A stretch of 64,000 nucleotides of DNA from an uncultured virus (IMG/VR IMGVR_UViG_3300025015_000025). Lineage: Duplodnaviria; Heunggongvirae; Uroviricota; Caudoviricetes. The translations under genes were made by a program, and so were the position numbers. How positions within the stretch are numbered: the stretch's first letter is position 1; each line of letters begins with the position of its first letter. Shown in pieces: positions 11,996 through 33,926 of this stretch. The notes below the pieces were generated by a model that was given only the letters and a program-made list of their open reading frames with translations, searched no databases and had not been told where the DNA came from. The stretch spans positions 1 to 64,000 of the IMG/VR virus record IMGVR_UViG_3300025015_000025. One strand, written 5' to 3'.

Positions 11996-13120
11996 ATGAC
12001 CCAAAGCATGGAAGTTCTAATCTATGAAGTGAGAAAATCATCCTCTCCAGGATCAATGAAATTCTTAATAGTTCCTACATCTAACGGTCTTGCTGTTGTC
12101 CCAGCGGAGCTACGCAAAAGCCTCGGGGAATTGGTTTTTTTCACAAAGCTATCGTTGAATAAGGGAGAAAAACGAATTGCTCTTGATGTTGATAATGTTC
12201 TTCTCCAGATTCAAGAAAAAGGATATGGTGTTCAGGAAAACATTCCTTCAGGCTATAGGGCTACTCCTTCGCGAACGGAAATTATCACCGAAATTCAGAG
12301 CATGATACGGCTTGCAACCGCACGTGGCGTAAGTGAGCACAGCCAATACAATACGAATTGCGTAGTGCGCTTGGGGAATGGATTGATCGCGGCCATACAC
12401 GGGCTGGTATGGAGCGGTGATGCGGAAACTGTTTTATTCAGTATCCACGAGGCCTTGCGCGCCCAAAATGATCAAGACCATCTATTGGTCTGCTTAGTCT
12501 GTGGCTGGAGAGGATCTGAGGCGAGTCGGAGGGCCACGTACTTTCAACAGACCGTGTGCGCTGGTCCCATGGCTCTTCCTCCGGACCCAAATGTTCATTT
12601 CTACGAAATGGGACATGGAGCGGCATGGGACTGCGGTCCGGTCGTTACAGATATTGGCCAGCAGGTATCTCATATCGACTGCACTCATTCTCTCTACAAT
12701 GTGCGTCGTGAACATTACCAGAAATACGGGCCGTTGTACACGCTGGATGAAGAGATTCTAAAGCGGGAGCCTGATATAGACTTCGTTTGTGAACTTCTAA
12801 AAACTCGCGGTTCCCTAACAAAATATTGCAGAAAGGTGGTTCATGAAAAGGAGAGGCAAGTTATGCTCAACGAAATGAAACTGCAAATGGAAGCTACTTT
12901 GGCGAAGTTTGTCTTTCAAGATTCCACTAAGACTACTTGGCGAAAAATGGAGGATGCACTGGAAACTATCCCTGGCGTGCAGATTGCAAAAGTCTGGCAC
13001 GTCAGCGGGACATCGCTGGAAGGGTTCATTATTTGCGCCAAAGGCCGGAACCGCATTGACTTCACCGTCCGTCCCGTTGGCGTTGACGTAACCCTGCTGG
13101 AAGAGAGTACCACGTCTTAG
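11996..13120 (+). CDS. chimeric protein: N-terminal YcgL-like domain, unknown middle, C-terminal tail-sheath-like fragment
   Basis: IYEVRKS...VPAELRKSLG...RIALDVDNVLLQIQEKGY.VQ (YcgL-like); C-terminus aligns with the sheath C-terminus in this window. Confidence 0.6.
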   Translation: MTQSMEVLIYEVRKSSSPGSMKFLIVPTSNGLAVVPAELRKSLGELVFFTKLSLNKGEKRIALDVDNVLLQIQEKGYGVQENIPSGYRATPSRTEIITEIQSMIRLATARGVSEHSQYNTNCVVRLGNGLIAAIHGLVWSGDAETVLFSIHEALRAQNDQDHLLVCLVCGWRGSEASRRATYFQQTVCAGPMALPPDPNVHFYEMGHGAAWDCGPVVTDIGQQVSHIDCTHSLYNVRREHYQKYGPLYTLDEEILKREPDIDFVCELLKTRGSLTKYCRKVVHEKERQVMLNEMKLQMEATLAKFVFQDSTKTTWRKMEDALETIPGVQIAKVWHVSGTSLEGFIICAKGRNRIDFTVRPVGVDVTLLEESTTS

Positions 13121-13149
13121 TTGACAAACTCGCTAAACTATGGTATAGT
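13121..13149 (+). promoter_or_regulatory. sigma70 promoter, probably leaderless transcript
   Basis: TTGACA-17-TATAGT; 6 nt separate the -10 from the ATG; no RBS. Confidence 0.8.
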
Positions 13150-13155
13150 ACAGCC

Positions 13156-13479
13156 ATGAAACAATGTCCTCGCTGTGGAGCGCCGTATGACAGGGACGTG
13201 CTGGTGGGGATCTCGGGCAACACGTTCGGGCGCAAGTTTTCCTGCGGGACTATCGTCGGGCCAGCCGTGCAGGATATCAGCACACCTCCCGATGGGGTTA
13301 CCGTGCTGTGGGCCGCCTGTGCGTATTTCGTGCAACGGGCTGCCCAGATAGACTCGCAGGTGGAGCAAATATTTCGAGCTGCGACATTCAACGCCTCCTC
13401 CTGGTACGAATCGGCATCTGGTGTTGCGCAGTTGACTAAAGCCGAACAGGAGCGCGTGTTACAAATCATTCGACTCTGA
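13156..13479 (+). CDS. hypothetical zinc-ribbon protein
   Basis: CPRCG...CGT...C; first gene after the promoter. Confidence 0.6.
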   Translation: MKQCPRCGAPYDRDVLVGISGNTFGRKFSCGTIVGPAVQDISTPPDGVTVLWAACAYFVQRAAQIDSQVEQIFRAATFNASSWYESASGVAQLTKAEQERVLQIIRL

Positions 13480-13496
13480 TAGAGACAGGAGGGACT

Positions 13497-13853
13497 ATGT
13501 GGATTTCCCGTAAGGATTACGACCTGCTGCTGATATCGGGAATGCGGTTGAAGCAGGAGAACGAGACGCTCTTGCAGCGTGTCGCTGAGATGGAGGCGGA
13601 AGCGTCCAGGTTGCGGAAGGGCTATGAGCGGAATTTCTACGCTGTGGAGAGTGACGACGGCGGCAATACGGTCAGCACCATTGTCTCCTCCCGTTCCGCG
13701 CGTGTGCGGGATGCTTGGGTGGCCTCTAAGCCTTCCACTCGGTTGGGCGTCTCGGCTGGTCACGCTAAGGTCATAGAGGCACTTCATTTGGGAAAAGTGC
13801 CCTCTTTGGACCCGACCAAGGAATCTCAGAGCGCGCAGTTGCGGTTATTTTGA
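13497..13853 (+). CDS. hypothetical coiled-coil protein
   Basis: RBS AGGAGGG. Confidence 0.6.
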   Translation: MWISRKDYDLLLISGMRLKQENETLLQRVAEMEAEASRLRKGYERNFYAVESDDGGNTVSTIVSSRSARVRDAWVASKPSTRLGVSAGHAKVIEALHLGKVPSLDPTKESQSAQLRLF

Positions 13854-13887: not shown

Positions 13888-14169
13888 ATGACAGACACGC
13901 TGGAGGCCTTCTCCGTACGTGCCGAGCGCTTGTTGGACCGGTTATTCCTTGGCAAGCACCATGTTCCCAAGATCAAGAAAGAGAACGTGGAGACGCCGTT
14001 TGAACGCTGGGAGGTCAACGACTCCGGGGACTGGTCTACCTTTGACTTTGAACGGCTGACCCGGCTCGTGATCTTAGCCCATGATGAGTGCATACGCGCC
14101 TCCATCTGTCCCAGCGGTCCACGCCATGCACGCCCGATCCCAATGCTTGCCCTCGTTGGCCGTCTTTGA
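13888..14169 (+). CDS. phage hypothetical protein, apparently truncated
   Basis: STFDFERLTRLVILAHDECIR motif; runs into the Thg1 fragment. Confidence 0.5.
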   Translation: MTDTLEAFSVRAERLLDRLFLGKHHVPKIKKENVETPFERWEVNDSGDWSTFDFERLTRLVILAHDECIRASICPSGPRHARPIPMLALVGRL

Positions 14170-14521
14170 CGCCAGGGCATTCTCCGTACCCGTGGATGAC
14201 GTTGTGAACGTCTTCCTGTGGCGGGCCAAAGATTGGGAACGCAACAGCATCCAGATGTACGCGCACAGCCTGTTCAGCCATAAGCAGCTCCACAAGAAGA
14301 ACATTGGCGCGATGCATGAGATGTTGCATTCTGTCGGCAAGAACTGGACTACGAATCTATCCGACCGGGAACGTAACGGCGCGTTCCTGATCCGGCGTTC
14401 CGGCGGAGGCATCGAAGTCCGAACGGATATCCTTCCAACGTTCCCAAGCGTCCAAGCGGCTATAGGTGGCCTTTTCACCTTTGACGCGGATAAGAAGCCA
14501 AATGCGCCGGGGATGCCGTGA
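14140..14521 (+). pseudogene. tRNA(His) guanylyltransferase Thg1-like C-terminal fragment
   Basis: VFDARAFSVP..DVVNVFLWRAKDWERNSIQM.A.SLFSHKQLH.K...NW...G; the N-terminal catalytic RxDG/SDE motifs are absent. Confidence 0.7.
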
Positions 14522-14749
14522 ACCGTCCCGAACTCGGCGTCAAGCAATTTGTCGCCGTCGTGCAAAACCGGCGAGGTGGGAAGTTCATGGTATTTGCCAC
14601 AGGTAGTTCTAAGCACTACCTGTTCTCCCCCTTGGACCAATATGGGTGTGCAACCTGCATGAGCTTTCCTGTTCTGAAAGCCAACCTCCGTCCCGAGATC
14701 CGAAGAGCCCTTGCACACGGATGGGGCAATGCCTCCTTGTAATATCTAC

Positions 14750-14778
14750 TTGACAAACAGAAAAAGGCGTGGTACAAT
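14750..14778 (+). promoter_or_regulatory. sigma70 promoter
   Basis: TTGACA-17-TACAAT with TG extension. Confidence 0.85.
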
Positions 14779-14807
14779 ACGGCCATAGAGACTACAAGGA
14801 GGCTCAT

Positions 14808-15038
14808 ATGAACGGAACGACGAAAATGACCCTCGATCAAATCTGCGAGCAGGAGCACTTGTACCGCCGGGAGGATCTGCCGGTCTGGTGTGAGAAGAAA
14901 CTCCTCGCGGCCGGTGTGCGCGTACCCGTGCGGTTGACGGGCACAATCTGGGCGTACTCCAACGATCTTGGGCAGGTGTGGATCGCCACCACCATGCAGG
15001 GTTGGGCACGGTCGCTGTCCGTCCGGATGCTGTACTAA
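14808..15038 (+). CDS. hypothetical protein
   Basis: RBS AAGGAGG after the promoter. Confidence 0.65.
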   Translation: MNGTTKMTLDQICEQEHLYRREDLPVWCEKKLLAAGVRVPVRLTGTIWAYSNDLGQVWIATTMQGWARSLSVRMLY

Positions 15039-15048
15039 GGAGGCTATC

Positions 15049-15549
15049 ATGTCAACCAAAAAGAAAACCTACCCTTGCCCCTCATGCAGGAAGCCCATCC
15101 CGGTTACGGAGTTCTTCTCCGGCGACGATTTTGTACTCGACGAGTACGGTGACGATGGGGATAGTGCAACGCTTTGGTACAAGGGAAAGCTCGCCCTCGG
15201 CAACAGTGAAGGCGCTAAACAAGGAACGTGCGTAAAGTGCAGGCTGCCAATCCTCGTCAGCGCCACCATGCACATCACGCAGACAACGGAATTTTCGGTT
15301 GGAAAGGACCCTGCGCGGGACCGCTTGTTCACCGCCAAGGATTTTCCGGCCTGGGCGTGGGATAAACTGACGGAGAATTTGAAAAGCACCACAGGTACGG
15401 ACATGCCTGCCATCTTCCTGTACAAGGACATCTTGGGCCGGATATTGTTTACCGGCGATGGCCTGCGCGCCAAGCTGTGGCGGACGAGGGGCGGTGAAGC
15501 TTTTCCAAAAGACCTGCCTCCGTCTGCGCCAAAGGACGGGGCACGCTAA
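15049..15549 (+). CDS. hypothetical zinc-ribbon protein
   Basis: RBS AAGGAGG; CPSC...CVKC. Confidence 0.6.
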   Translation: MSTKKKTYPCPSCRKPIPVTEFFSGDDFVLDEYGDDGDSATLWYKGKLALGNSEGAKQGTCVKCRLPILVSATMHITQTTEFSVGKDPARDRLFTAKDFPAWAWDKLTENLKSTTGTDMPAIFLYKDILGRILFTGDGLRAKLWRTRGGEAFPKDLPPSAPKDGAR

Positions 15550-16238
15550 TGGCCTACGTCGTTCTGCAATCCGAGGTAGGCCTGTATACCGTCGGGTTTT
15601 ACTCTCCTGACGGAACGTGGCATCCCGTAAAGGATTGCGCGTCTTCCGAAGAAGCACAACGACACGCGCATTATCTGAATGGGGGAAGCTCTCAAACAGG
15701 GAACGAGGCGAAGAAAACTAAAGTGCCCTCCAAGTCGCAAGTTCTCGCGCCGAAGATGTTGGATTTTATCCAGAGATGGCGTGAAATCATTGACGGAGGA
15801 GGCAAGGGTGCGGAACAGTGGGCAGAGGACTTTGACACGGAAGCTCAGGCGATACTGAAGAAAGTACGCAGGAATCACTTGGGAGAAGATGCTGAGATCA
15901 TCACAATCTTTGAATTTGCCTGCGGGTGCAAAGTGACCCGACGCGATAGGACCACCCTTGTTTCCATGTCCTATTGCGCAACGCACGAGAACCCATCGAA
16001 GGGGGTCAGGAATCAGTTTATCGGGGAGATAGAGTTGCTATCCTTTATCAAGTCACTGGATGACCGGTTGCGAGCACTGTGTGTGCAAGCGCATATCCTA
16101 GCTAATGAACATGCAGCCGGGTTGGCCATTAGTGATGGCGCGTGGAAGGACCTCTTGGATTTGGCCTGCGAGGGGTTCAAGGCGTCCGATACCTACCATG
16201 CTGCGTTGATAACTTCGGCATCCAAGGCCAAAGGATAG
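15549..16238 (+). CDS. hypothetical protein (probable fusion)
   Basis: N-terminal YTVGFYSPDGTW...HYLNGG module followed by an unrelated extension. Confidence 0.55.
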   Translation: MAYVVLQSEVGLYTVGFYSPDGTWHPVKDCASSEEAQRHAHYLNGGSSQTGNEAKKTKVPSKSQVLAPKMLDFIQRWREIIDGGGKGAEQWAEDFDTEAQAILKKVRRNHLGEDAEIITIFEFACGCKVTRRDRTTLVSMSYCATHENPSKGVRNQFIGEIELLSFIKSLDDRLRALCVQAHILANEHAAGLAISDGAWKDLLDLACEGFKASDTYHAALITSASKAKG

Positions 16239-16245
16239 TCCCGTC

Positions 16246-16716
16246 ATGGCCATGAGGCTCATTGATGCGATCAAAGTTGTCCAGGACCCGTTCCGGGGTA
16301 TTCAGCACTCGGCACAGAAGATCGCTTGGGCGGAAGAAGCAATTCGCGCCAGGGATTTGGACCCGGAAACCTACCGGAATTGGGTGCGCCCTAAAGCCCT
16401 AAACCGGAGTCTGCAAAATCCACGCACGAGGACACGCATGTACAGCATCCAGCGACAACTCCTGCTTGATCCACGATCCCGTACCGTCGTATCCGCCGAG
16501 GTCACGGAAGTACTTCGGCTTGCCGGACCTGATACACCAGTGACCAGTGTGCTATTTGGCCGAATGTACCAGGTCAGTTCCGGCGGTCGTCGCTTGCGCA
16601 GGCTATGCTTCCGGGATCGTAAGGTCGCCGAGAAACTTCTCTTAGCAGACAAGTCTATCCTGCGGGAAGTGGAGATGGCCTGTACGGTATCCGATTGCAG
16701 GGCGGCAATGGCATGA
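16246..16716 (+). CDS. hypothetical protein
   Basis: ORF in operon context. Confidence 0.5.
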   Translation: MAMRLIDAIKVVQDPFRGIQHSAQKIAWAEEAIRARDLDPETYRNWVRPKALNRSLQNPRTRTRMYSIQRQLLLDPRSRTVVSAEVTEVLRLAGPDTPVTSVLFGRMYQVSSGGRRLRRLCFRDRKVAEKLLLADKSILREVEMACTVSDCRAAMA

Positions 16717-17166
16717 ATGGCTTGTCAATGGGGTCCATCGAGTCCAAGTTCATTGCTGCCACTCTTGAACAAGGAAAGAATGCTTCTTCTGAGGATATGG
16801 CGGAACACTACGGTCGGCTGTGCATTGCCTGTGTAATGGGCAATTTGGCGCTTCAAGATATCGCTCCCGTGTATGCTCGCATTGCCTATCGGTTCGCGGA
16901 GAAGGCTACACCCAATTTCGCCTTGCGCGGCTTTGAGATGTTCTCCGTGCTATTGCAACATCACTATGGATGGGTGCGTTATGACGTGGAAGCTCGCATG
17001 TTAGCGGAGGCAGCGTATATAGCCGTGCGCCGGAGTCACACCTTCCTGACGGATACCAACCACACCTACACGGCGGGCGAACGGACGATGCCGATAGGCG
17101 GTAGGACAATGACCTGGACTTCGGACATGATTCGACGCTATGTCGCGGCGTGTCAGAAGGCACCAC

Positions 17167-17967
17167 GTGGCTGACCAGGCTCCCGTAGCGTGGTCCGAGA
17201 ACTCGGTCTTGGACCGGCTGACGTACCTTTTCCCTGAGACGTCCCATGTGATCCTGCGTGGTGTACGCAATGCCACCGGCTTTCCACGTCAGGTCCGCAC
17301 GGCGGATGCCCTGGTCCTGTCCACCTGGCCCTCACGGGGCCTCTGGATGGCGGGTGTGGAAGTGAAAATATCCAAGAGTGACTATCGCAAGGAGCTGGAG
17401 GATCCCACGAAGGCGCATGAGTTTCATCGCTTCTGCCATTTCTGGTACGTGGCGACGCCCAAGGGGCTCCTCGACGGGTTGGTCATACCGGAGACGTGGG
17501 GCCACATTGAGGTCCAGAAGGATCGCGCCAAAGTAGTAAAGACACCAATTCAGCAGACCCCTATCCCGATCACCATGGCATTCCTCTGTTCTATCTTGCG
17601 CCAAGTGTCCGAAGGCTATATTTCTAAAGAAACCTTGAACACCCGCATTGCGGAGGAAGCGGAACGGCAAAATAAGCGGCTTAAAGAGCACCTGGAATAC
17701 GAGTACAAGAAATTGAAAGAGAACGTAGAACACTTCGAGAATCTCTCCGGCGTCAAGCTTGCCAAGAGTTGGGAACTGTGCAACATCGGTCCTGCCGTGC
17801 GCTTTGTCGTCAACTCCGGCCTGTTGCGCGGTGAGAGTATGATGGAACGCCTTCTGGAATCTTGCGAGCGTAGTGCCAAGGATATCCGAGAGGCGTTGGA
17901 GGAGTTTCGTAAAGCATCTCCGGAGAATCACTCTGTTGGAGGAGCCAATGGTCCTGACCAGGGTTGA
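17167..17967 (+). CDS. MmcB-like PD-(D/E)XK nuclease family protein
   Basis: RTADAL...GVEVKISKSDY..EL..P.K...FCHFWYVATP.GL...IPETWG. Confidence 0.75.
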   Translation: MADQAPVAWSENSVLDRLTYLFPETSHVILRGVRNATGFPRQVRTADALVLSTWPSRGLWMAGVEVKISKSDYRKELEDPTKAHEFHRFCHFWYVATPKGLLDGLVIPETWGHIEVQKDRAKVVKTPIQQTPIPITMAFLCSILRQVSEGYISKETLNTRIAEEAERQNKRLKEHLEYEYKKLKENVEHFENLSGVKLAKSWELCNIGPAVRFVVNSGLLRGESMMERLLESCERSAKDIREALEEFRKASPENHSVGGANGPDQG

Positions 17968-19422: not shown

Positions 19423-19450
19423 TTGACAAACACGGAAAATCTGCTATAAT
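19423..19450 (+). promoter_or_regulatory. sigma70 promoter
   Basis: TTGACA-16-TATAAT with TG extension. Confidence 0.8.
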
Positions 19451-19481: not shown

Positions 19482-19895
19482 ATGACGCCTCTGATAGGAC
19501 AGTTCTTGGGCATCGAAGCGGACAAGCCGACGGCGACAGGCCGAGTGTATCCTAAGAGTGTTCTCGCTTCCCTGGTGTGTCAAGCTCGTCAGGATAAAAC
19601 GGATATCCCAGGATTTTACGGTAACCTGACCGACGCTTGGCAACCGCCTTCCGTAGACACGTGCGCTTTCACGGCCAGGAACGTTCGGCTGGAGCGCGAA
19701 CGGCTGGTGTGTGACGTGGCCGTGGTAGACACGCCTGCTGGTCGAAAACTCCGGAAGGACCTCGCCGCCAAGAAGAACGTCCCATTCACGCTGGCCGTCA
19801 CGGCGTCATTACGCAGGGACGCGGAAGGCAGAGAGGTGATTGGTGATGATGTCAAGTTGTGCGGGGTATCCGCCGTGCTGGTCGATGGACAGTGA
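19482..19895 (+). CDS. prohead-protease (gp21-like) paralogue lacking catalytic motifs
   Basis: EADKP...RVYP and VVDTPAG align to the 52055 protease; ELDHP and GVSSR are not retained. Confidence 0.75.
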   Translation: MTPLIGQFLGIEADKPTATGRVYPKSVLASLVCQARQDKTDIPGFYGNLTDAWQPPSVDTCAFTARNVRLERERLVCDVAVVDTPAGRKLRKDLAAKKNVPFTLAVTASLRRDAEGREVIGDDVKLCGVSAVLVDGQ

Positions 19896-19917
19896 CGCAG
19901 TGCATAGGAGGGAATCC

Positions 19918-20286
19918 GTGACGCAACAGAACTGTGTTGGGAAGGTCCACTACCCGCTGTGGTATCGTCTGACCAACCTTATTCCTGCAATTCGGAGGAA
20001 ACGGCAAGCGATCTGGGACAATGTACTTAAGCGCAAAGGGCCTTTCATTTACCTTCCCTATACGCCTGTGTATAAACCCCTTTCCATGGATGACATTGTA
20101 CGTGGGTACAGCCCCTTGTGGGCGAGACTGCTCTATTTCCTGCCCGTGGTGCGTCGCTATGCCAATCGGAGATTCTCCCGGATGCCTATGGTTAGAGCCT
20201 ATGCGCAGAGGCCCATCAACAAGATGTTCTACCAGGTGGGCACGATTAACACGGGTAAACACGACGCTGGAGACTCCCATGAATGA
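19918..20286 (+). CDS. small protein built from major-capsid-like motifs
   Basis: YLPYTPVY and YAQRPINKMFYQVG match the MCP C-terminal LLPYIPLY and YAKKIINKNYYVKG; RBS AGGAGGG. Confidence 0.6.
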   Translation: MTQQNCVGKVHYPLWYRLTNLIPAIRRKRQAIWDNVLKRKGPFIYLPYTPVYKPLSMDDIVRGYSPLWARLLYFLPVVRRYANRRFSRMPMVRAYAQRPINKMFYQVGTINTGKHDAGDSHE

Positions 20287-21067
20287 GGCTATTCGTGTCC
20301 CCGGCATGACTGAGGAGGAATGCAGGCAGTTGATCCCGCCAGGGACGTTCCTGTTGGGCTACGCAGGCTCCCGAGCGCATGGCACCTATCCCCCGCCGGA
20401 GGTTCCCGGATCCGTTGACGACATAGACCTGATGGGCGTCGCGTTCGCCAAGCCGGAAGTCTACCTGGGACTGGCTCAATGGGATCACGTCCAGATCATC
20501 CGGGGCCAGTGGGACGTGACAGCCTATGAAGTCCGCAAGTTCGTCCGGCTCCTGCTCAAGCAGAATCCTAACGTGCTTAGCCTGCTGTGGTTGCCTGATG
20601 AGTGCTACGTCCATCAGACCCCCGCAGGGCAATGTTTAGTGAATAACCGAGATCTCTTCACGTCAACGCAGATATTCCATTCCTTTGCGGGATACGCCTA
20701 TGAGCAGCTCCGGCACATGGAACAGCGTTCCGTCAATTCCCGCATGGGGGAGAAGCGGCGGAAGGTCGTCCAGCGGTACGGTTATGATTGCCTTGCGGCT
20801 AGCCACCTGATACGGCTCTTGCGCATGGCCATTGAGTTCCTTGGCGATGGTATTCTGCGCGTCCGGCGTCCGGATGCCTCCGGTCTGTTGGAGATCAAAA
20901 CCGGGCTACGGACTCTGGAAAGCGTGAACGCGGAGGCCACCAAGCTATTCAAGAAAGCTGAAACTGCCTTTGCGAAGTCGCCGTTGCCTGCCACGCCGCA
21001 GACGCGCAAGGCGGAAGAACTGCTGATGGAGATCGTGCGCAACTACTTGCTGATGGGTGTTGCGTGA
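20279..21067 (+). CDS. Pol-beta superfamily nucleotidyltransferase (PF10127/RlaP-like)
   Basis: GSRAHGT...DDIDLMGV, KFVRLLLKQNPNVLSLLW, YDCLAASHLIRLL. Confidence 0.85.
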   Translation: MNEAIRVPGMTEEECRQLIPPGTFLLGYAGSRAHGTYPPPEVPGSVDDIDLMGVAFAKPEVYLGLAQWDHVQIIRGQWDVTAYEVRKFVRLLLKQNPNVLSLLWLPDECYVHQTPAGQCLVNNRDLFTSTQIFHSFAGYAYEQLRHMEQRSVNSRMGEKRRKVVQRYGYDCLAASHLIRLLRMAIEFLGDGILRVRRPDASGLLEIKTGLRTLESVNAEATKLFKKAETAFAKSPLPATPQTRKAEELLMEIVRNYLLMGVA

Positions 21068-21565: not shown

Positions 21566-23047
21566 ATGAAGACAACACTCTTATGCGGTGATGCGCTGGA
21601 AGTCCTCCGAACACTTCCCGATAATTTCGCAAGTTGCTGTGTTACGTCTCCTCCCTATCTCGGGTTGCGGGATTATTTAGTCTCCGGCCAGATTGGGCAA
21701 GAAGTCCTGCCGGAAGAGTATGTTGCTAACTTGGTAGCCGTCTTTCGGGAGGTTCGGCGAGTTCTACACGATAGTGGGACGTGCTGGATTGTGATGGGCG
21801 ATGCTTACTGCGGTGGTGGTCGCACGGGAAAGGGCGGTAAACAGATATGGGGTGGAATGGAAAAGAGTCAAAGTGGGCGTGGGCTGGCGTACGGTCAGCC
21901 GACGGGAAAGTTGCCGGGAATTAAAACCAAGGACATGCTTGGCCTGCCTTGGATGCTGGCCTTTGCGCTCAGAACTGATGGCTGGTACTTGCGGCGTGAC
22001 ATAATCTGGACGAAAGAAAACTGTATGCCATCTTCCGTCAAGGACAGACCAACATGCAATCACGAGACGATCTTTCTCTTGTCTAAAAAGCCCAACTACT
22101 TTTATGACTACGTGGCGGGATTGGAAGACGCTGTGTCCGCATCCGCTCATGACGTGACGGGCCAAGGGTACGCTGCGCCAGGACAATCCCCACAGAAGGG
22201 CTCCCGTCCGCGTGGTGGCAAGAGTGCCTTTCGTGGCCAGGGTCACCAGCGTTCTACTCCGTCAGGCCCGGCGAACCGCTCAGGAAGAGACATGCAGACG
22301 GTTGGACCGGGAATCATTAGGCTTGCAGCGTCCGGCAATAAAGAGCGCCGCTTTGGTGAAGATGCGGGGCGTCCAGGTAGCCATCTCGGAAGGTCTGTTC
22401 CGTGGGAAGGCTTCAAGCGCAACCGGAGGACAGTGTGGTCCGTTCCAACCGTTCCGTTCAACGGGAAGAAGTTTGGCGCACAGGATCACTTCGCCGTATT
22501 CCCCTTACGGCTCATCGAACCCATGATCCAGATAGCCACGAGTGAGTATGGCATATGTTCTCAATGCGGAACGCCTTGGGAACGCGAGTACCGGAAGAAA
22601 ACAGTGTTCCTATCCGGATCCGGCAAAGCAGGAAAAGCACCTGTGGGGAAACATGCTGGATCGGAGCAAGTACAAAGCGGCGAATATGATGTGCGCATGG
22701 GCGCATATATGGCATACGAGACAACCTGCTGGAAGCCGACATGCGCATGTGAAGCGCCTCCAGTCCCCGCCGTTGTGCTGGACCCGTTCTGCGGGAGCGG
22801 CAGTGTCGGCGTCGTGTGCAAACACTATGGCCGGTCCTTTATCGGTATCGACCTGCACCCCGGCAACGTTGAACTGTCCAGCAGGCGCATTGCCCTGGAT
22901 GACTCGTTGAATAAGACTCCGCGCGCCGTCAAGCCCCGAAAGGGCAAGGACGCGCCTCGGCATATCCCGATGGCTGGACTCTTACCAAACTTTGACTTGA
23001 CAAACGAGAAATTGCCTGTAAGATTAACACCTGTAGAAGAGGAGTGA
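21566..23047 (+). CDS. DNA amino-methyltransferase (N4-C/N6-A, beta class)
   Basis: CVTSPPY catalytic motif, IIWTK.N.MP.SVKDR, HFAVFP, VLDPFCGSG SAM-binding motif. Confidence 0.92.
   Translation: MKTTLLCGDALEVLRTLPDNFASCCVTSPPYLGLRDYLVSGQIGQEVLPEEYVANLVAVFREVRRVLHDSGTCWIVMGDAYCGGGRTGKGGKQIWGGMEKSQSGRGLAYGQPTGKLPGIKTKDMLGLPWMLAFALRTDGWYLRRDIIWTKENCMPSSVKDRPTCNHETIFLLSKKPNYFYDYVAGLEDAVSASAHDVTGQGYAAPGQSPQKGSRPRGGKSAFRGQGHQRSTPSGPANRSGRDMQTVGPGIIRLAASGNKERRFGEDAGRPGSHLGRSVPWEGFKRNRRTVWSVPTVPFNGKKFGAQDHFAVFPLRLIEPMIQIATSEYGICSQCGTPWEREYRKKTVFLSGSGKAGKAPVGKHAGSEQVQSGEYDVRMGAYMAYETTCWKPTCACEAPPVPAVVLDPFCGSGSVGVVCKHYGRSFIGIDLHPGNVELSSRRIALDDSLNKTPRAVKPRKGKDAPRHIPMAGLLPNFDLTNEKLPVRLTPVEEE
22997..23024 (+). 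promoter_or_regulatory. possible sigma70 promoter inside the MTase 3' end
   Basis: TTGACA-16-TAAGAT upstream of the GAGGAG RBS. Confidence 0.55.
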
Positions 23048-23397: not shown

Positions 23398-23428
23398 GGG
23401 TCGGGCACAGGTCCGGCCCTTTTCTTTT
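23398..23428 (+). terminator. intrinsic terminator
   Basis: GGGTCGGGC-ACAG-GTCCGGCCC followed by TTTTCTTTT. Confidence 0.8.
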
Positions 23429-24258: not shown

Positions 24259-25469
24259 GTGTACAGCGTGCCAGAATCGAGGGAAGACTTGGCAGGGGGG
24301 CGATCCGGTATGTGCGTTTCCGAACGGCGTGTTTGACTCCTCTAATTGGAACATGCGCGTCTTTCATCACACGGACAATGACGGTAAGTGTGCGGCGGCT
24401 ATCGTCCTGCTGGCGTATCCTTCCCAGGACATTCAGCTAACGCCGGTGGACTACAAGGACCCCTTCCCCTTCGACGGCATCAAACCTAACGAGGAAGTCT
24501 GGATCGTGGACTTCCACTTGGCCACGAAAGAGAACTGGGAGCGCCTCCTGGCCATCACGCCCAATGTCAAGTGGTTTGACCATCACGTCACGGCGGTGGA
24601 GAAGTTCCAGGAGTACAAGGATCGGATCCCAGGCACACGTGCGGTCGGAAAGGCCGGGTGTATGCTCGTGTGGGAGTATCTCTTCCCTCGACGCCGGTTC
24701 CGTTGACGCTCCAGATGGTCAACGCCTTCGACCTATGGAAATTCCAGTACGGCGATGTTGTGCATATCTTCCAGTGTGGGTTGAACTCCTTTGATACCAG
24801 CCCGGAGCAACCCTATGGGCAACGTTGCTTCTCCCCAAAGGCATGAAAACTTCCCGTGACCGGTTGCGCATGACGCAAGACATGCTGACGCAGAACATCC
24901 AAACACGGGGAAAGGCTGTTCTGGACTATACCGAGCAGGCCAGCGCCAACCTGATGCGCGGCCTATCCTTCCGCACGGAACTGGATGGGTTAGCCTGTGT
25001 CGCATGCAACACCGCGTACACGGGCAGCTTTGCCTTTCGTTCCGTGCGCGACAACGCCACCCCGCTCATGGCGGCATTCTGCTTCGACGGCAAGCGCTGG
25101 ACGGTGACGGTGTACAGTGAGACCGTGGACGTGTCCACAATCGCGGCTAAGCGGGGCGGAGGCGGGCACAAGAACGCCGCCGGATGGGTCTGTGACACAC
25201 TGCCCCAGGAGTTTCAGATCAAGCCAGCTATCGGCACTGGAGCCCGTGAGGCGCTGGCCAACTACGCCCATGAGGCTTGGACAGGCTGGACGAAGCACTT
25301 GTTCTCCAAATGCTCAATGCAATCTGATGACACGCTGGCGATACCTCCAGACGTTGTAGACCGGGCGCAACGGCAAATGGCGACGAAGTTCATTGATTTG
25401 CCTGACGAGGAGAAAGCAAGCGACTTGGAACAGGCGGACGCTATCCTGCGCGTGCTGGCAAACCAATGA
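24251..25469 (+). pseudogene. DHH/DHHA1 phosphoesterase split by two frameshifts (possibly sequencing errors)
   Basis: HTDNDG, IVDF, WFDHH, then DLW in a second frame, then GGGGHKNAAG in a third frame. Confidence 0.8.
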
Positions 25470-25696
25470 GCGAAAAGTCAACGGCGTCTGTCTTTGTCAA
25501 AATAATCACTTCGGATTATGTTTACATGCCGGGGGTCGTGTTGCATGAGGACATGCCCGCACGCCCTCCAGTTGCCAATTTTCTTCCCTACATCCCACTC
25601 CCCGCGCCTACGCACGGTTGCCGGTATTGCGGACGAAGGGGGATCACGACGGGTAACTGCCCCGGTTGCGGCGCACCGGATGAGGGGGTCCTATGA
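25466..25696 (+). CDS. small zinc-ribbon protein
   Basis: CRYCG...CPGCGAP; contains FLPYIPL. Confidence 0.55.
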   Translation: MSEKSTASVFVKIITSDYVYMPGVVLHEDMPARPPVANFLPYIPLPAPTHGCRYCGRRGITTGNCPGCGAPDEGVL

Positions 25697-27305: not shown

Positions 27306-27328
27306 AGCCAAGTATCATAGGAGGCACC

Positions 27329-27577
27329 ATGCAGGATGTGTACAGGGAACTGATAATCGCGGCCATGAAATATTCCAATGGGACATGCTGTCTGCTGGTG
27401 GATGGGAATAAGCACGCGGCCGTTTTGGACTCTTATGAGGATGGACACGAGATGCTGGATCTGGGCATCCTCCCCTTGTACGACACGGAAGAGGAGGCGA
27501 TTAGGGCGCTGTTGAGTAGATTCAGTGCGCCGGGGCCAGCTCCGGTAGTGGAAGAGGGGGCAACCTGTGTGGGGTAA
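27329..27577 (+). CDS. hypothetical protein
   Basis: RBS AGGAGG after the promoter. Confidence 0.65.
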   Translation: MQDVYRELIIAAMKYSNGTCCLLVDGNKHAAVLDSYEDGHEMLDLGILPLYDTEEEAIRALLSRFSAPGPAPVVEEGATCVG

Positions 27578-28432: not shown

Positions 28433-28966
28433 ATGGATATGGACTATACATGGGTCATCAATCACGGCTCAGTTTTGCTCCCTGGTTTTCAACAGAAATC
28501 CGTGGGGAAGTTTGTCAGTAATGGGGTCTACGCATTCCAAAGAGAAACGCCTGATGGACACATGCTTTGGCCGTTTCTGGAGAGCGAAATGAAACTCCTT
28601 CCTACTATATTTTCGCGCGTCTGTGGCTGGTGTCATACGCCGCAAGGCACGTGTGTATCTCCGAGCGACCTATGCGAGAACCGCAAGGGAATTTTGTATT
28701 GCACTCGGGAACGTGGACATGAGGGAGCACACGTTGCGTGTAGACTGGGTGGGTCATTGGATGCGCCTGACGCCCATCCTATTCTGGTATGGTCCGAGTT
28801 GCCCCAAGAAGGCAGGTGTCAGGTTGACGTTGAGATTCCTGACCCTGATGGCACGATTGACTATCGTCCTATTCTCGCGCATGGTACTCCTTTGAGGACC
28901 GGAGATCCAAAGGAAGTGCGCGTGTTATGCCTCAATGAAAAACAAGCGCCGTGGTGTATGGTCTGA
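28433..28966 (+). CDS. hypothetical Cys/His-rich protein
   Basis: C..CTRERGHEGAHVAC motif. Confidence 0.55.
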   Translation: MDMDYTWVINHGSVLLPGFQQKSVGKFVSNGVYAFQRETPDGHMLWPFLESEMKLLPTIFSRVCGWCHTPQGTCVSPSDLCENRKGILYCTRERGHEGAHVACRLGGSLDAPDAHPILVWSELPQEGRCQVDVEIPDPDGTIDYRPILAHGTPLRTGDPKEVRVLCLNEKQAPWCMV

Positions 28967-29023
28967 TTCATGATGCACTATGCTTGGCCCGCTTGGGTTA
29001 TATTATCAAGAAGGAGAACTAAC

Positions 29024-29332
29024 ATGGGAATCTACAAGACGGAGTACAAGTGTTCCCGGTGCAAGAACGTTGTGGCCTCCATCGAGCCCCCGGACGGAGG
29101 TATCCTGATTGCCCCCTGCGCTCTGTGCTTGAAGGAGTACCACCAGAAGGGCGTGGAGTTTGCGGAGGCGCAAGCCAAGAAGGAGGCTGGGATGTCGCCG
29201 GAAGACCTCCAGGACCGGAAGAACTTACAGACCATCCAAACCCTCCTGAGAAATCGTGGGGACGCACACCTGGCCGAATGGGTTACGCTAAAACTTGCCG
29301 AACAGGTGATGCAGACACTCCCCAAGGAATAG
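29024..29332 (+). CDS. hypothetical zinc-binding protein
   Basis: RBS AAGGAG; CSRC...PCALC. Confidence 0.6.
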   Translation: MGIYKTEYKCSRCKNVVASIEPPDGGILIAPCALCLKEYHQKGVEFAEAQAKKEAGMSPEDLQDRKNLQTIQTLLRNRGDAHLAEWVTLKLAEQVMQTLPKE

Positions 29333-29700
29333 GGCAACCCGTCGTGTCCTGCTGCCCCTGCGATTTTGAACGAATGCTTCAAAAGGCCCGAGAGGGGGAG
29401 AGTGTCTCGGTTTGCACTTCCTCTTGGACGGCCCCAGGAAATTCTATGCCCTATCTCTGCACGCGCATCAACGATCATGCGGGTCAGCACATGGCCTGTG
29501 GAACAGTTCCTCCTGAATGTGGAGGACTCCCGTTGGCTACGTGGGATGATGCCGGTGTAGGTGAGCGAAGGGCACGAGTGCCTTTTACAGACTATCCGAA
29601 GTCCTACCTGCACGAGGCCAAGGCGCTATTCGCTCGCGTTTTAGACTGCCTGACGTTCCGGAAGTAGAGAACAGAGCAATAAAAAGAAACGGAGTAGACT

Positions 29701-30021
29701 ATGAGAATGAGATTCTTGGGTACAGGCAGCGCATTCACAATCAAGAACTGGCAAAGCAATGTTTTGGTCGAAGTGGAAGACGGTACGGTGGTACGCCGTC
29801 TCCTGATTGATGCTGGAGGGGATATCCGGCATTCTCTCGCCGAACAGAAATTAAATTACATGGATGTTGATGCAGTCTTTATCAGTCACCTTCACGGGGA
29901 CCACGCTCAGGGATTGGAGTATTTAGGCTTCTGCAATTTCTCTATTAAAGATGGCTTTATAGGGTTTGTACAGAAGGGGCAGACGATTGAACCGGTTGAT
30001 GTGAAGGCACAGAATCGCTAA
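29701..30021 (+). pseudogene. metallo-beta-lactamase-fold (RNase Z-like) hydrolase with large internal deletion
   Basis: FLGTGSAF, LLIDAG, FISHLHGDH motif, but only 106 aa. Confidence 0.7.
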
Positions 30022-30332
30022 TGGCATGTGCTTCCTGCAACTCCGTCAACATCACAGCCCGTCACGGCTGGTTGCGTTGCTCCGATTGCGGGAAGGTCTG
30101 GCGCGACGGTGTGACCCCCATACCAAAACCCGCGTGCAATCCTCCTGTGCGTTATCCTCCAAGTGAGCTGGATACCTGCCCCTTCTGTGGGTACGTTGCC
30201 GACATGGCGGAGATGCCGGAGGGCTGGTTTGGTGTGTGCTTGGATGGAAACTGTGGGGCCATGGGTCCGGTCAGACCAACACGGGTGGAAGCCGTGACGG
30301 CGTACAACTCTCGATGGGCTCCCCCATTTTGA
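30021..30332 (+). CDS. Lar-like zinc-finger protein
   Basis: CPFCG...C...CGAMGP...EAVTAYNSR. Confidence 0.55.
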   Translation: MACASCNSVNITARHGWLRCSDCGKVWRDGVTPIPKPACNPPVRYPPSELDTCPFCGYVADMAEMPEGWFGVCLDGNCGAMGPVRPTRVEAVTAYNSRWAPPF

Positions 30333-30340
30333 AAGGAGGC

Positions 30341-31072
30341 ATGATGGTTAAGCGTATTCTCACCGTATGCAGGGATTTCGGTGTCGTAGCGCTATTGGTG
30401 CTGGCCGTGTGGCTGGGCCTCGTGGTCATCGGCCTGCAACGCAACATTATCACCATGCAGGACAAGCTCCGCATCAGTGACAGCCGCGTGGAGGCCGTGA
30501 ACGGCATCTCCGAGGATATGGGCCTAACCTTTCGCCTGGTGGACGGCATCGCGGCCCGTAACCCCAAGCTGAAAGCACGTGAGGTATCCGACATCTCCCT
30601 GTCCATTCTGCGGGCGTACAAAGCACACAGGGACCTTGGCCTTACCCTTCCGATGATTTGTGGCGTGATCCAGACGGAGAGCAACTTCCTTCCCACGGCG
30701 TTGAGCGCCAAAGGGGCCATGGGGGAGATGCAACTCATGCCGGAGACGGCGAAGGTCTACATGGAGCGGGATGGCTATCCCTATGATCTCAACTTGCTCT
30801 ACAATCCCACACTGAATATCACGTGGGGGTGCCGTCACTTAGTGGACCTCCATGTCGTCTACGAGGGGTTACCGACCGTGCGGGATCCTACCTGGCGTAA
30901 TGCCCTGCTGGCGTACCTGGGCGGCGCGGAAAATCTACGCTCGTTCTTGATCTGGGAGCACGCGGGACGGAAGTCCGCCTTCTATATACCCAAGTACGAG
31001 GACTATCCCCGTGCTGTCTTGGACGCGGCGGCGGAGTGGCAGGAAATTCTTTACGGGACGGCAAAACACTGA
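30341..31072 (+). CDS. lytic transglycosylase (SLT) with N-terminal transmembrane anchor
   Basis: IQTESNF, SAKGAMGEMQLMP.TA, NITWG..HL, ALLAY; hydrophobic N-terminus. Confidence 0.88.
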   Translation: MMVKRILTVCRDFGVVALLVLAVWLGLVVIGLQRNIITMQDKLRISDSRVEAVNGISEDMGLTFRLVDGIAARNPKLKAREVSDISLSILRAYKAHRDLGLTLPMICGVIQTESNFLPTALSAKGAMGEMQLMPETAKVYMERDGYPYDLNLLYNPTLNITWGCRHLVDLHVVYEGLPTVRDPTWRNALLAYLGGAENLRSFLIWEHAGRKSAFYIPKYEDYPRAVLDAAAEWQEILYGTAKH

Positions 31073-31148
31073 GACACTACCAGGCCCTAAATCCTTTTGA
31101 CAGGAGGGATTATAGACAGGTAGCACAGGGTTCCATTCTTCACGGCGC

Positions 31149-31189
31149 ACCCCAGAGCCAGCAGGAGTCTGCTCTGGGGTTTTTATTTT
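31149..31189 (+). terminator. intrinsic terminator
   Basis: ACCCCAGAGC...GCTCTGGGGT followed by a T-rich tract. Confidence 0.8.
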
Positions 31190-31206
31190 GACTTCCAATC
31201 TTTCTC

Positions 31207-31234
31207 TTGACAAAATGAATTCTTCCTCTATAGT
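31207..31234 (+). promoter_or_regulatory. sigma70 promoter, probably leaderless transcript
   Basis: TTGACA-16-TATAGT; 6 nt to ATG 31241. Confidence 0.75.
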
Positions 31235-31240
31235 AGTGCC

Positions 31241-31561
31241 ATGCTTGAAACCGGACTGGAACACGTCACACACCTTGCCGTGGTTGTATCCAACCCCCGG
31301 TCCTTAAAGCTATTAGGCGCAAAATTCGTGGAAATCGCGGACGTGATCGGTGAAGACAATACCTGTTGCCTTCTGGAAATGTTCGCGGGCAAGACGTTGG
31401 AGTTCCCTTCCGGGGTCGAGATATCCCGTGCGCATCAGAAGTTGCATGTCTGGCAATTGAAACGATGGGGCAAGACGGATGAGGAAATCGCCAAGAAAAC
31501 GGGCATCAGCATCGCCGACGTTCCCATGCTGGTCCAGGGCATGGACGCCCTGCTGGATTAG
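31241..31561 (+). CDS. Mor/C-family transcription activator-like HTH protein
   Basis: EIADVIGEDN...LLEMFAGKTLEFP...EEIAKKTGIS. Confidence 0.7.
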   Translation: MLETGLEHVTHLAVVVSNPRSLKLLGAKFVEIADVIGEDNTCCLLEMFAGKTLEFPSGVEISRAHQKLHVWQLKRWGKTDEEIAKKTGISIADVPMLVQGMDALLD

Positions 31562-31707
31562 GAGGCTACCTTGGAAGACAACAAACCCTGGCCGGATGAA
31601 TCTGTAGCCGTGGCACCCAAGCCGTGTCATCATGTCTGGGTCGTGGATTCGGCGACGGGGGAGAAAGTGTGTTCGCTGTGCTCGAAGCATCTGCTCCAGG
31701 ACTGATC

Positions 31708-32052
31708 ATGCCGATCTGGATGGGATGGACGATCCTAAGCCTGTTGGCGGCGTTGACGGTATTCCTGCTGACCATGACCGTGCAACTTGTCCGGTATACC
31801 CGCGCCGTCGCGGGCCAACTGGACGCCATGGGGGCCTTTTTCCAGGAAACAGAGGCTGAGTACCGCAAGCAATTGAAGGAAATCGTGGACGTACTGGCCC
31901 AGATGGCTCCCGCCTTGGTGGGGATGGCGGAGGCGATGGCAAAGAGCACGGTGACACGCCCCCTGGTGGATCGGGATCAGGAACGCTCGGAGCGCGCCAC
32001 GACGTTTGCTAAGAAGACCCTGCACGCGCAGACGGAGGACGACCTTGAGTGA
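31708..32052 (+). CDS. membrane-anchored hypothetical protein
   Basis: N-terminal transmembrane segment followed by a coiled coil. Confidence 0.55.
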   Translation: MPIWMGWTILSLLAALTVFLLTMTVQLVRYTRAVAGQLDAMGAFFQETEAEYRKQLKEIVDVLAQMAPALVGMAEAMAKSTVTRPLVDRDQERSERATTFAKKTLHAQTEDDLE

Positions 32053-32608
32053 GAAACCGGGCCTGACGAAGACCAGTAGGCTCACGTCCCGCGATCTGCT
32101 CAATTGGATATCGGAAGACGGCGCGTTCCGTCCCGACGCGCGGGATCACCTTCGCCGGATCATTGAAGAATACCTGTCCAAGCTCAACGTCATCCTCGTG
32201 GCCATTGGCCAGGATGAGTTGCCCGCCCTGCAACGCTTACATGCCGTGGAAATGGCCTTGGTGGATGAGTTGGAGGACCGCAGCCGGGAGTCCATCGGGT
32301 TCTCAGGGCTGAAAGTGCAGGACATGTCCATTCTGCTGGGGAGAATCACGGAAGCCAAGAAGGGCGTCATGGAGTTCGTCCAGGCCACGACGGAGCGCCT
32401 GGATTCTGTGGCACAGTTCCTTCAGGAGATGGACAAGGGGAAAGAAAAGAAGCCGGATAACCGCTATGTCACCATGGTACGGGCGCTATCCCCCAAGGAT
32501 CGGGAGGAGTTGCGCTTGAAGTTGGAAGAACTATACCGCGCCCACACGTGCCCGGATACTCAGACGGGGGAATATGAAAGCTATGAAAGCACAGGAGCAT
32601 CGGATTGA
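32045..32608 (+). CDS. hypothetical helical protein
   Basis: Overlaps its neighbours; codon usage typical of the window. Confidence 0.55.
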   Translation: MSEKPGLTKTSRLTSRDLLNWISEDGAFRPDARDHLRRIIEEYLSKLNVILVAIGQDELPALQRLHAVEMALVDELEDRSRESIGFSGLKVQDMSILLGRITEAKKGVMEFVQATTERLDSVAQFLQEMDKGKEKKPDNRYVTMVRALSPKDREELRLKLEELYRAHTCPDTQTGEYESYESTGASD

Positions 32609-32921
32609 GTTTGACCATCGCGGGTTCTACGGCCCTGCACCGTATCACTGCACGCTGACCTTGCAAGCCCATGACGCCTTTGAGGAGTTCTCTTTCGTCC
32701 CCGTTCCCATGATGGTGGTGATGCTGAGGCAAGCCTTGGAAGCCCGAGACGTGAAAGATACCATCGGCATGCTGTCCCTGTGGGCGAACTCCGTCATGGA
32801 AAGCACCTTGACCCTGTTGAAACAGGCGGAATGGCTGGATCGTATCAGCGCCATCCAAGTGACCGTCAAGTTTGGAGATAGCCCGCGTGTGACCGTCACT
32901 CGGGATGAGGACAAGGCGTAG
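32574..32921 (+). CDS. hypothetical protein
   Basis: RBS GGGGG; operon context. Confidence 0.55.
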   Translation: MKAMKAQEHRIEFDHRGFYGPAPYHCTLTLQAHDAFEEFSFVPVPMMVVMLRQALEARDVKDTIGMLSLWANSVMESTLTLLKQAEWLDRISAIQVTVKFGDSPRVTVTRDEDKA

Positions 32922-32924
32922 ACC

Positions 32925-33926
32925 ATGATCCAGATACAAGGCCATCCTTTGGAGTCCCTCTATCGTGAAGTCCTGACCAAGTACGCCGACGTAGTGAGTC
33001 CGTTAAAGGAGAACCGGCGTCTGTTGGCGTCCGCGCTTCTGGACAACTGGGAATACGTTCAAACCGTCCCTATTCCCGAAGGCGTAGATGAGGTCAGAAG
33101 GAAGGAGGACCTTCAGCGCATGAGCGTGTGGATGAGAGACACTATTTTGGAATTTTGCCAGCGTACTATCCTTCCGAATATCATTTCCATTCAGCCCGCC
33201 ATCCTGCGCCAAAACCATATTAAAAGCGACTTCCTATACCGTCGCGTGGAAATTAAAGAGGGCAGCGCGGATACCGTACCGGAAATAACTCTGCTGGACA
33301 CACATCACACTCTCAGCCTGCTCCTTAGAAAGATGCGCATACGGCATCTCCTGACAAGAGCGCCTGGGGAAGTCGCGCAACAACTTATTGAAGATTTCGA
33401 GGCATACTTTTTCTATATTATGCGAGATAATGGTGTAGTAATAGAACTTCCTTTGTACGATAAAACCCCGCCGGTAGCTCAGGACTGGTTTGAGCATAAT
33501 GTAAGAGCTTTTCCGGCTATGCTTTTTGCAGGGTGTTCCGAAGTACTCAAGAAAACACGAACCGTTTACCCAGATACGCTTCTCTGCGGGAAAAACGTAA
33601 TTGCCTTCGTCGAGCATCTTCCAGATTTTCTGTTAGAAAAAACAGAACGTTCAACACGGGGAATACTTTCCTTGGGTAACAAGACTTTCACCGTCTACGC
33701 CTTGGATGGTGTTCATGATGATTCATTTATCCTGCTTGCAGCCGAGAATAACGAACGGTTGCTGGCACATAATTTCATTTGGGCTCCTGGCTATCTCCTG
33801 GATATTTCAATGCCACACATAAACACGGATTTCACCTGTTGCCAAGGAACCTTTTCCTTCTATGGTTGTTCGGCTCTGTGCAAGGCCTTCGCGTACGGAA
33901 CCATCATAGCCGGAGTGCAAGCGTGA
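32925..33926 (+). CDS. divergent major-capsid paralogue (gp23/gp24-like)
   Basis: Colinear motif matches to the 53625 MCP: ALLDN/CMLEN, ISIQPA/VAMQPM, EGSADTVP/EGSADTP, LRKMRI/PRKLRI, GKNV...EHLPDF/GENV...ESLPTF. Confidence 0.75.
   Translation: MIQIQGHPLESLYREVLTKYADVVSPLKENRRLLASALLDNWEYVQTVPIPEGVDEVRRKEDLQRMSVWMRDTILEFCQRTILPNIISIQPAILRQNHIKSDFLYRRVEIKEGSADTVPEITLLDTHHTLSLLLRKMRIRHLLTRAPGEVAQQLIEDFEAYFFYIMRDNGVVIELPLYDKTPPVAQDWFEHNVRAFPAMLFAGCSEVLKKTRTVYPDTLLCGKNVIAFVEHLPDFLLEKTERSTRGILSLGNKTFTVYALDGVHDDSFILLAAENNERLLAHNFIWAPGYLLDISMPHINTDFTCCQGTFSFYGCSALCKAFAYGTIIAGVQA

Follow-up and report, generated by a model that had tools for sequence, protein, structure and literature searches.

Does the accessory region of a T4-like phage harbor a set of mimics of its own virion proteins? 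This question is raised by positions 11,996 to 33,926 of a 64,000-nucleotide stretch of DNA (positions 1 to 64,000 of IMG/VR record IMGVR_UViG_3300025015_000025; hereafter the window) from an uncultured virus of the Caudoviricetes. An earlier note had proposed that five structural-protein mimics are dispersed there, outside the structural genes: a whole capsid paralogue, a dead protease, a capsid mini-protein, a C-terminal sheath fragment and a zinc ribbon bearing a capsid motif. All five stretches are present as open frames on the + strand. We found that two are real derivatives of head genes (the open reading frames, or ORFs, that start at 32925 and 19482 and are named here by these positions), that one is a probable derivative (ORF 19918) and that the two others (at 12863 and 25466) match at chance level. 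These results suggest two separate sets of head-gene derivatives, a vertex-like capsid paralogue and an early protease-capsid pair, rather than one arsenal; we give this reading a probability of about 0.5.

The + strand gene set was compared all-vs-all by BLASTP and phmmer, and profiles of the three parent families were searched against the 1907 six-frame open stretches of at least 30 amino acids in the whole 97-kb genome to which the window belongs. Expectation values are given as E.

A trimmed capsid paralogue

ORF 32925 (32925..33926, + strand, 333 amino acids) was confirmed, by sequence comparison, as homologous over its whole length to the gp23-type major capsid protein, in a trimmed form. 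Its parent is the family of the true capsid gene of the phage (53565..55025, + strand; PF07068 E=8.5e-45). The two proteins form the best non-self pair in the all-vs-all comparison of the proteome (BLASTP E=1.7e-5 to 2.5e-5), and the pairwise comparison gave E=4e-7. A hidden Markov model (HMM) profile of six clade capsid proteins detected ORF 32925 genome-wide with E=1.2e-10, the next ORFs having E values above 0.6, and a clade profile leaving out the window's own capsid protein gave E=6.6e-9. None of 1000 shuffled sequences reached the score of this ORF. By BLASTP it matched all seven clade capsid proteins (E from 6e-10 to 8e-6, 21-27% identity) and none of the more distant gp23 or gp24 proteins.

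The alignment to the capsid protein is collinear from end to end, including the N-terminal propeptide-like part. Three motifs are kept, RK[LM]R..AQQ, PN[LI]I..QP and the C-terminal AP.Y..DF..YG, and the alignment indicates the absence of approximately 125 amino acids of the insertion-domain region and of a further 21 amino acids. T4-type proteases cut by an L/I-x-E rule. In ORF 32925 a V-D-E is aligned with the L-[DE]-E that ends the N-terminal propeptide region of the clade capsids, and cleavage at this position is presumed only. The ESM Atlas model of the protein (predicted local distance difference test, pLDDT, of 0.50) reached a template-modeling (TM) score of 0.54 against Gp23 clusters.

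In a tree of 21 rows, ORF 32925 and its own clade formed an unresolved polytomy, in which the ORF had a branch of 3.69 changes per site; T4-type gp24 behaved similarly, with a branch of 2.53. Left out of this tree were L004, the N-terminal fragment L042 and a second row of the capsid protein of the window. The profile match of L004 is identical to those of L005 and L043, and L005, L043 and L040 are absent from the capsid-protein file. Rows L035 and L002 came out identical.

Two further observations concern parts of the capsid protein elsewhere in the genome. The insertion-domain region (profile positions ~96-226) recurs in other head-module ORFs and for this reason looks, in sequence, like a module common to several head proteins of the clade; the match is weak in the window (ORF 51223-51849, E of 0.004-0.19) and clear in relatives (3652-4275 and 13174-14142 of L037 and 3234-4160 of L002, E from 2e-9 to 6e-7). 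ORF 40536-41390 (284 amino acids), which lies beside the portal and HU-like genes, presents a weak match to capsid residues 48-125 (BLASTP E=0.005-0.008) that the broad profile does not support, and may be a scaffold or core protein with a propeptide-like segment.

A protease copy without catalytic triad

ORF 19482 (19482..19895, + strand) encodes 137 amino acids, or 141 if the alternative ATG at 19470 is used. Profile matches and a structure model confirmed that its predicted fold is that of an S77 prohead protease, with the catalytic triad replaced. The parent is the family of the true prohead protease (52055..53587, + strand), which consists of an S77 domain (residues 1-210) and a long C-terminal part, is recognized by PF03420 and phrog_207 and aligns to T4 gp21 (PDB 5jbl).

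A profile of the S77 family, made from eight named phage proteases together with that of the window, matched ORF 19482 with E=2e-5 over positions 38-160 in the six-frame search of the whole genome, where the next ORF had an E value of 0.62. The hhalign comparison with this profile gave a probability of 91.5% (E=8.8e-7, 119 columns), and an independent profile made of metagenome relatives only gave 78% (E=1.8e-5). The negative controls, T4-type gp68 and Inh, yielded 0.3% and 0.2% on the S77 profile. The Atlas model of ORF 19482 (pLDDT 0.75) matched Peptidase_S77 clusters with a TM score of 0.84, and the feature search gave 0.95. Not one of 3000 shuffled sequences reached the score. With a loose threshold, tblastn returned eight records: three on genes annotated as prohead protease, two on a portal gene, one unannotated and two on hypothetical genes, which are Staphylococcus phage genes with the same alignment span.

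The triad of prohead proteases is given as His/Ser/Asp in PMC5694885, and the 'dead' variant of T4 gp21 as H85A/S140A in a preprint (bioRxiv 10.64898/2026.03.04.709575). In the family alignments, the true protease's His80, Ser133 and Asp160 do not vary. In the hhalign alignment they face Asp55, Thr111 and Ser134 of ORF 19482 (numbering of the 141-residue form), such that all three triad positions are replaced, and the SRG loop that follows the catalytic serine is deleted. ORF 19482 also has no C-terminal part, lies 32 kb upstream of the true protease gene and has its closest kin among the S77 enzymes of its own clade.

T4-type gp68 (141 amino acids) and T4-type Inh were both considered as counterparts of ORF 19482 and rejected, on the S77 profile values given above for each and, for Inh, also on a BLASTP E of 1.1.

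A probable capsid-end mini-protein

Directly after ORF 19482 lies ORF 19918 (19918..20286, + strand, 122 amino acids), a probable remnant of a capsid gene as judged from a C-terminal clade profile, shuffled sequences and a coding score; the family of capsid gene 53565 is probably its parent. The gene itself looks real. Direct reading of the sequence reveals an AGGAGGG ribosome-binding site (19906..19912, + strand), which stands 5 nucleotides before the GTG start. The coding signal is found in the frame of ORF 19918 and not in the overlapping start of the nucleotidyltransferase ORF that follows, with a switch of frame near 20288.

The likeness to the capsid protein is confined to its last ~50 residues, which are matched in two collinear pieces by residues 43-59 and 88-112 of ORF 19918. 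A 75-column C-terminal clade profile detected ORF 19918 with E=0.0017 (3.2 for the next ORF), and its score was reached by none of 3000 shuffled sequences. The best background E over 50 capsid and sheath profile windows was 0.054, and correction for 20 capsid windows brings the E of ORF 19918 to ~0.03. The order of ORFs 19482 and 19918 mirrors that of the true protease (52055) followed by the capsid (53565), which lends independent support to a capsid origin. A literature search on phage capsid decoys and second capsid copies, covering listings and parts of PMC7824862, brought up no account of capsid-fragment genes.

Chance matches

The sheath C-terminal fragment that had been placed at 12863 starts at an internal methionine of a longer ORF (11996..13120, + strand) and has no ORF of its own. 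The longer ORF encodes a YcgL-domain protein (PF05166 at the N-terminus) of which the last 85 amino acids had been claimed to be sheath-like. These residues matched the sheath with E=0.97 in the proteome, E=9 by phmmer and E=1.0-2.1 with clade sheath profiles, and the Pfam sheath models, including PF17482, found the true sheath only. Shuffled versions of the 85 amino acids reached the sheath score in three of 2000 cases, which is unremarkable for a match picked genome-wide.

The capsid motif FLPYIPL had been noted in a 76-residue zinc-ribbon protein (25466..25696, + strand). Only the hexamer LPYIPL is common to this protein and the capsid, and the ORF appeared in no profile match list. A count of the hexamers common to different proteins of the proteome gave 42, five of which involve the capsid protein. 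Judged by these comparisons, the sheath-like and the FLPYIPL matches are coincidental. Diverged derivatives of head genes do occur outside the head module, but no tail (sheath) fragment is supported.

Predicted promoters and proposed early placement

Seven sites of the form TTGACAAA...TATA[AG]T were identified on the + strand, at 242, 7806, 13121, 19423, 23433, 27277 and 31207, with a chance expectation of 0.01 for each of the two patterns. They are predicted host-type promoters with an extended -35 element, TTGACAAA, and are located 7-20 nucleotides before the first start codon of an operon. No site of the TTGACAAA type was found in the window downstream of 31,234, i.e., none in the structural half. 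The seven predicted promoters divide the accessory region into operons, which gives a clean early/late map of the genome.

The site at 19423..19450 (+ strand), directly 5' of the dead-protease gene, is a predicted sigma-70-type promoter of consensus sequence (TTGACA-16-TATAAT with TG, 12/12 hexamer matches). ORF 19482 is the first gene behind it and is followed by ORF 19918, by an RlaP-type nucleotidyltransferase (20279..21067, + strand; PF10127 E=5e-19) and by an N6/N4 DNA methyltransferase (21566..23047, + strand; PF01555 E=1e-36, phrog_67). The nucleotidyltransferase starts at ATG 20279, which overlaps the stop of the mini-protein as ATGAATGA. A strong terminator-like hairpin with a T run (23398..23419, + strand; 9-pair stem, 7 G-C pairs) likely ends the operon. 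The last consensus promoter before the structural genes (31207..31234, + strand, 11/12 hexamer matches) heads the operon of the capsid paralogue; its first gene is Mor-like, ORF 32925 is the fifth, and the terminase gene lies 2.8 kb downstream.

Genome and gene layout

The phage is a distant T4-like myophage of 97 kb with a one-strand gene arrangement, known only from groundwater and soil metagenomes. The window is part of a 73,610-base virus record, and a near-identical IMG/VR contig of 97,296 bases presents 2 mismatches over 44.6 kb. The ends of this contig, which its source classes as linear, overlap by 154 bases with 1 mismatch, and the map is therefore circular at 97,142 bases. Over positions 14500-34400, no differing letter was found among the contigs of 4 groundwater metagenome runs. 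Sampled words of 19400-29399 were present at a fraction of 0.88-1.00 in each of 15 listed runs, which come from six studies (groundwater and two soil). Among the phages of a 50,697-record collection, none has a capsid protein with more than 34.5% identity to that of the window; for the metagenome relatives found, whose contigs are short, the ceiling is 40%, and the clade records L035-L039 stand at 36-40%. On these identities, the lineage is isolated in capsid sequence.

All long ORFs are on a single strand, and their content was assigned by Pfam and PHROGs scans. The map begins with replication genes, followed by the genes of the single-stranded DNA-binding protein (SSB) and SbcCD and by ~27 kb in which small ORFs, most of them unknown, are accompanied by methylases and nucleotide enzymes. 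The middle part contains a radical-SAM gene with a LAGLIDADG insert, a GroES-like gene, the terminase, the portal, the S77 prohead protease and the gp23-type capsid. The end is composed of the neck, sheath (59850-61988), tube, hub, tape measure, baseplate, fiber and lysis genes.

Several other ORFs of the window were noted. The radical-SAM (QueE-like) gene at 33779-35539 is split by an insert of the LAGLIDADG or homing-endonuclease type, probably an intein, and lies in the window's lowest-GC stretch (0.47). Just upstream of the terminase gene, 35598-36197 encodes a GroES (Cpn10) homologue with an N-terminal extension of ~90 residues, which we take to recall gp31, the T4 co-chaperonin that serves the folding of the capsid protein. 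A DHH phosphoesterase (phrog_4771) is spread over two ORFs, 24251-24706 and 24825-25469, that cover profile positions 7-131 and 177-321 and have a 62-residue ORF between them; this may represent a frameshift, an insertion or a true split. At 29701-30332, an ORF of 106 amino acids matches metallo-beta-lactamase and anti-Pycsar Apyc1 profiles over their first ~75 positions only, with 36 bits against a cut-off of 50, and is followed by a Lar-like zinc-ribbon ORF. Finally, a 146-residue ORF (14081-14521) covers positions 124-208 of a phage family of Thg1-like tRNA-His guanylyltransferases that is 250 positions long (E=2e-29), and so corresponds to only a part of that enzyme.

Origin and role of the head-gene derivatives

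The homologies and the loss of the triad are shown here, as are the order of the genes and the signals for promoter, ribosome binding and terminator, and from them we propose two separate histories. ORF 32925 would be an old paralogue of the gp23-type capsid protein encoded by the phage itself, evolved fast and trimmed. It would most likely serve as a minor shell component at the pentameric vertices, as gp24 does in T4, with an independent origin in this lineage. ORFs 19482 and 19918 would be the remains of a duplicated protease-capsid gene pair, in the form of a protease domain devoid of its triad followed by a mini-protein that retains the C-terminal end of the capsid. This pair would now head an early operon with a consensus host-type promoter, a nucleotidyltransferase and a DNA methylase. 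We infer early synthesis of both proteins and an action through binding, with no cleavage: the real protease's partners would be occupied by the dead copy. These partners could be host sensors triggered when the prohead protease cleaves, or else the protease or the capsid precursor of the phage itself. Head-protein paralogues are usually filed as structural or ignored. Here, a phage of 97 kb keeps a triad-less copy of its maturation protease and a capsid end-piece behind a perfect early promoter, with an anti-restriction-type methylase alongside.

A number of results weigh against this proposal. The G+C content at third codon positions (GC3) of ORF 32925 is 0.51 vs 0.86 for the capsid gene and 0.62-0.86 for the structural genes. 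A vertex protein would also fit less well with its aberrant amino-acid composition, with the absence of the insertion domain and of part of the E-loop region, and with its location 20 kb away from the capsid gene. The broad gp23 profile detected the ORF with E=0.0023-0.0028 only and Pfam Gp23 (PF07068) yielded no match even at E<=10, such that only clade-specific profiles detect it. The AlphaFold2 single-sequence model of ORF 32925 is poor (pLDDT 37), and Foldseek found no capsid fold with it. For ORF 19482, Pfam S77 (PF03420) gave no match at E<=10 and phrog_207 only E=0.094; the AlphaFold single-sequence model, made from the frame at 19470, is poor as well (pLDDT 42), and Foldseek on this model ranked T4 gp21 (5jbl) first of 350,542 chains with a non-significant E of 0.2. 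For ORF 19918, whole-length profiles gave E values of only 0.78-5.6, and the match covers ~45 residues with a profile window picked after the match was seen. The claim of a capsid mini-protein is consequently best limited to the end of the capsid. The five nearest named phages have one Gp23 and one S77 match each, with no counterpart of ORF 32925 and no second match of either kind. For the candidate ORFs searched (32925, 19470 and 11996), no homologue was found in 5.8 and 1.84 billion proteins besides those of the same phage, and the viral contigs searched yielded only the near-identical one of 97 kb. In the metagenome loci examined, no second copy of capsid or protease was detected within ~10 kb of the capsid gene.

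The alternative that fares best, although we consider it unlikely, is that these ORFs are neutral relics, functionless leftovers of a duplication or of recombination with a related phage that by chance are still open. The extreme divergence of ORF 32925, with its long branch and aberrant composition, its low GC3 and its large internal deletions would all be expected of relics, as would the lost triad of ORF 19482 and the failure to find orthologues in the protein collections searched. Yet all three frames, of 333, 137 and 122 codons, have stayed intact in the face of a divergence far past saturation, and the coding score is positive in the correct frame. Phage genomes rapidly purge useless DNA, which further counts against relics. 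In addition, a canonical ribosome site serves ORF 19918, which is also coupled to the gene after it, and ORF 19482 comes first behind a perfect promoter and has an Atlas model with a compact protease fold.

Doubtful, and somewhat less probable than relics, is the possibility that ORF 32925 acts outside the virion, either as a dominant-negative subunit that spoils the assembly of co-infecting relatives or as bait for host capsid sensors. Consistent with such a role are its location away from the head module, downstream of the last host-type promoter and alongside a Mor-like activator, its codon usage, which resembles that of accessory genes, and the lack of an insertion domain that the real capsid protein possesses. 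However, the full N-to-C architecture, the propeptide-like N-terminus and the V-D-E at the presumed cleavage site are what would be expected of a protein that enters the prohead. The ORF is also only 2.8 kb upstream of the terminase gene and transcribed in the same direction, and gp24 provides a precedent (PMC9958956). The vertex reading remains our preference for ORF 32925; a non-structural role, though less probable, would suit the loss of the insertion domain, the distance from the head genes and the codon usage.

For the early pair, a more specific extension of our proposal can be considered, and we hold it to be a long shot. The operon 19423-23419 would be a counter-defense unit whose two first products, made before the head proteins, saturate host sensors of head maturation as non-cutting and non-assembling stand-ins. 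Within this conjecture, and at the same low odds, the sensors could be, for example, the protease-cleaved activation loop of the CD-NTases of the cyclic oligonucleotide-based antiphage signaling system (CBASS), or capsid-sensing systems.

The least credible explanation is that five head and tail mimics form a coordinated arsenal of immune decoys or assembly poisons: although three head-gene derivatives are real or probable, two of them head an early operon containing a DNA methylase and host immunity that senses prohead-protease activity does exist (bioRxiv 10.64898/2026.03.04.709575), two of the five members fail every test, hence no tail part is left, and the three real members belong to two operons 13 kb apart and, when their end sequences were checked by eye, presented no common tag or motif. 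The arsenal thus shrinks to two loci and probably two events, of which the early operon with its DNA methylase retains a placement that fits a mimic or decoy role.

Comparison with known systems

In T4, gp24 forms the 11 pentameric vertices of the capsid. It is regarded as a product of gp23 duplication (PMC9958956, section 2.1), and some phages of the T4 superfamily are described as devoid of a gp24-like gene (PMC4621102). Like gp24, ORF 32925 is paralogous to the gp23-type capsid protein of its own phage, from which it has strongly diverged, and has a long branch and an N-terminal propeptide-like region. It is not an orthologue: BLASTP gave E=6.5 to T4-type gp24, and E values were above 4 for both T4-type gp24 and gp23. 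The tree places gp24 with the T4-type and cyanophage gp23 proteins and ORF 32925 with its own clade, and this difference in placement indicates separate origins. Unlike gp24, ORF 32925 has no insertion domain, is shorter (333 vs 427 amino acids), does not lie beside the capsid gene and is known from its gene alone. If it is a vertex protein, it would constitute an independent invention of a gp24-like protein without insertion domain and would inform on how pentamers evolve from hexamer-forming capsid proteins.

The earlier note knew of no described system of this form, a statement that does not hold for the protease. Giant phiKZ-like phages were reported in 2017 to carry 'cryptic proteases', truncated and presumably inactive prohead-protease paralogues of 136-145 amino acids and unknown function, namely SPN3US gp117, 201phi2-1 gp206 and PhiPA3 gp143 (PMC5694885). 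By that description, ORF 19482 resembles them as a short (137 amino acids), highly diverged and presumably inactive paralogue located away from the head genes. The parents differ, however: that of ORF 19482 is an S77 protease of the T4 gp21 type in a 97-kb phage, whereas theirs, as described, are S80 proteases in phages of more than 200 kb. All three triad positions are changed in ORF 19482, whereas gp117 is described as keeping Ser and Asp. A further difference from the cryptic proteases is that ORF 19482 comes before a capsid-end mini-gene, as first gene of an early operon with a consensus promoter. Given that the closest enzymes to ORF 19482 are the S77 proteases of its own clade, an origin independent of the gp117 family is likely.

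T4 Inh, a minor capsid protein annotated as an inhibitor of the gp21 protease, offers a parallel in function, since restraint of the protease is one of the roles considered for ORF 19482. The two share no likeness in sequence, either by BLASTP (E=1.1) or on the S77 profile (0.2%).

Finally, the CD-NTases of CBASS are reported to be activated by prohead-protease cleavage (Hobbs and Kranzusch, bioRxiv 2026, 10.64898/2026.03.04.709575). This is a host pathway that a non-cutting look-alike of the protease could in principle blunt, and such triggering would give the decoy idea a concrete target. The preprint, in the part available, covers the sensor and not a phage counter-measure, and its link to ORF 19482 is hypothetical. 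If the dead copy does blunt the CBASS sensor, the 'cryptic proteases' known since 2017 would gain a function.

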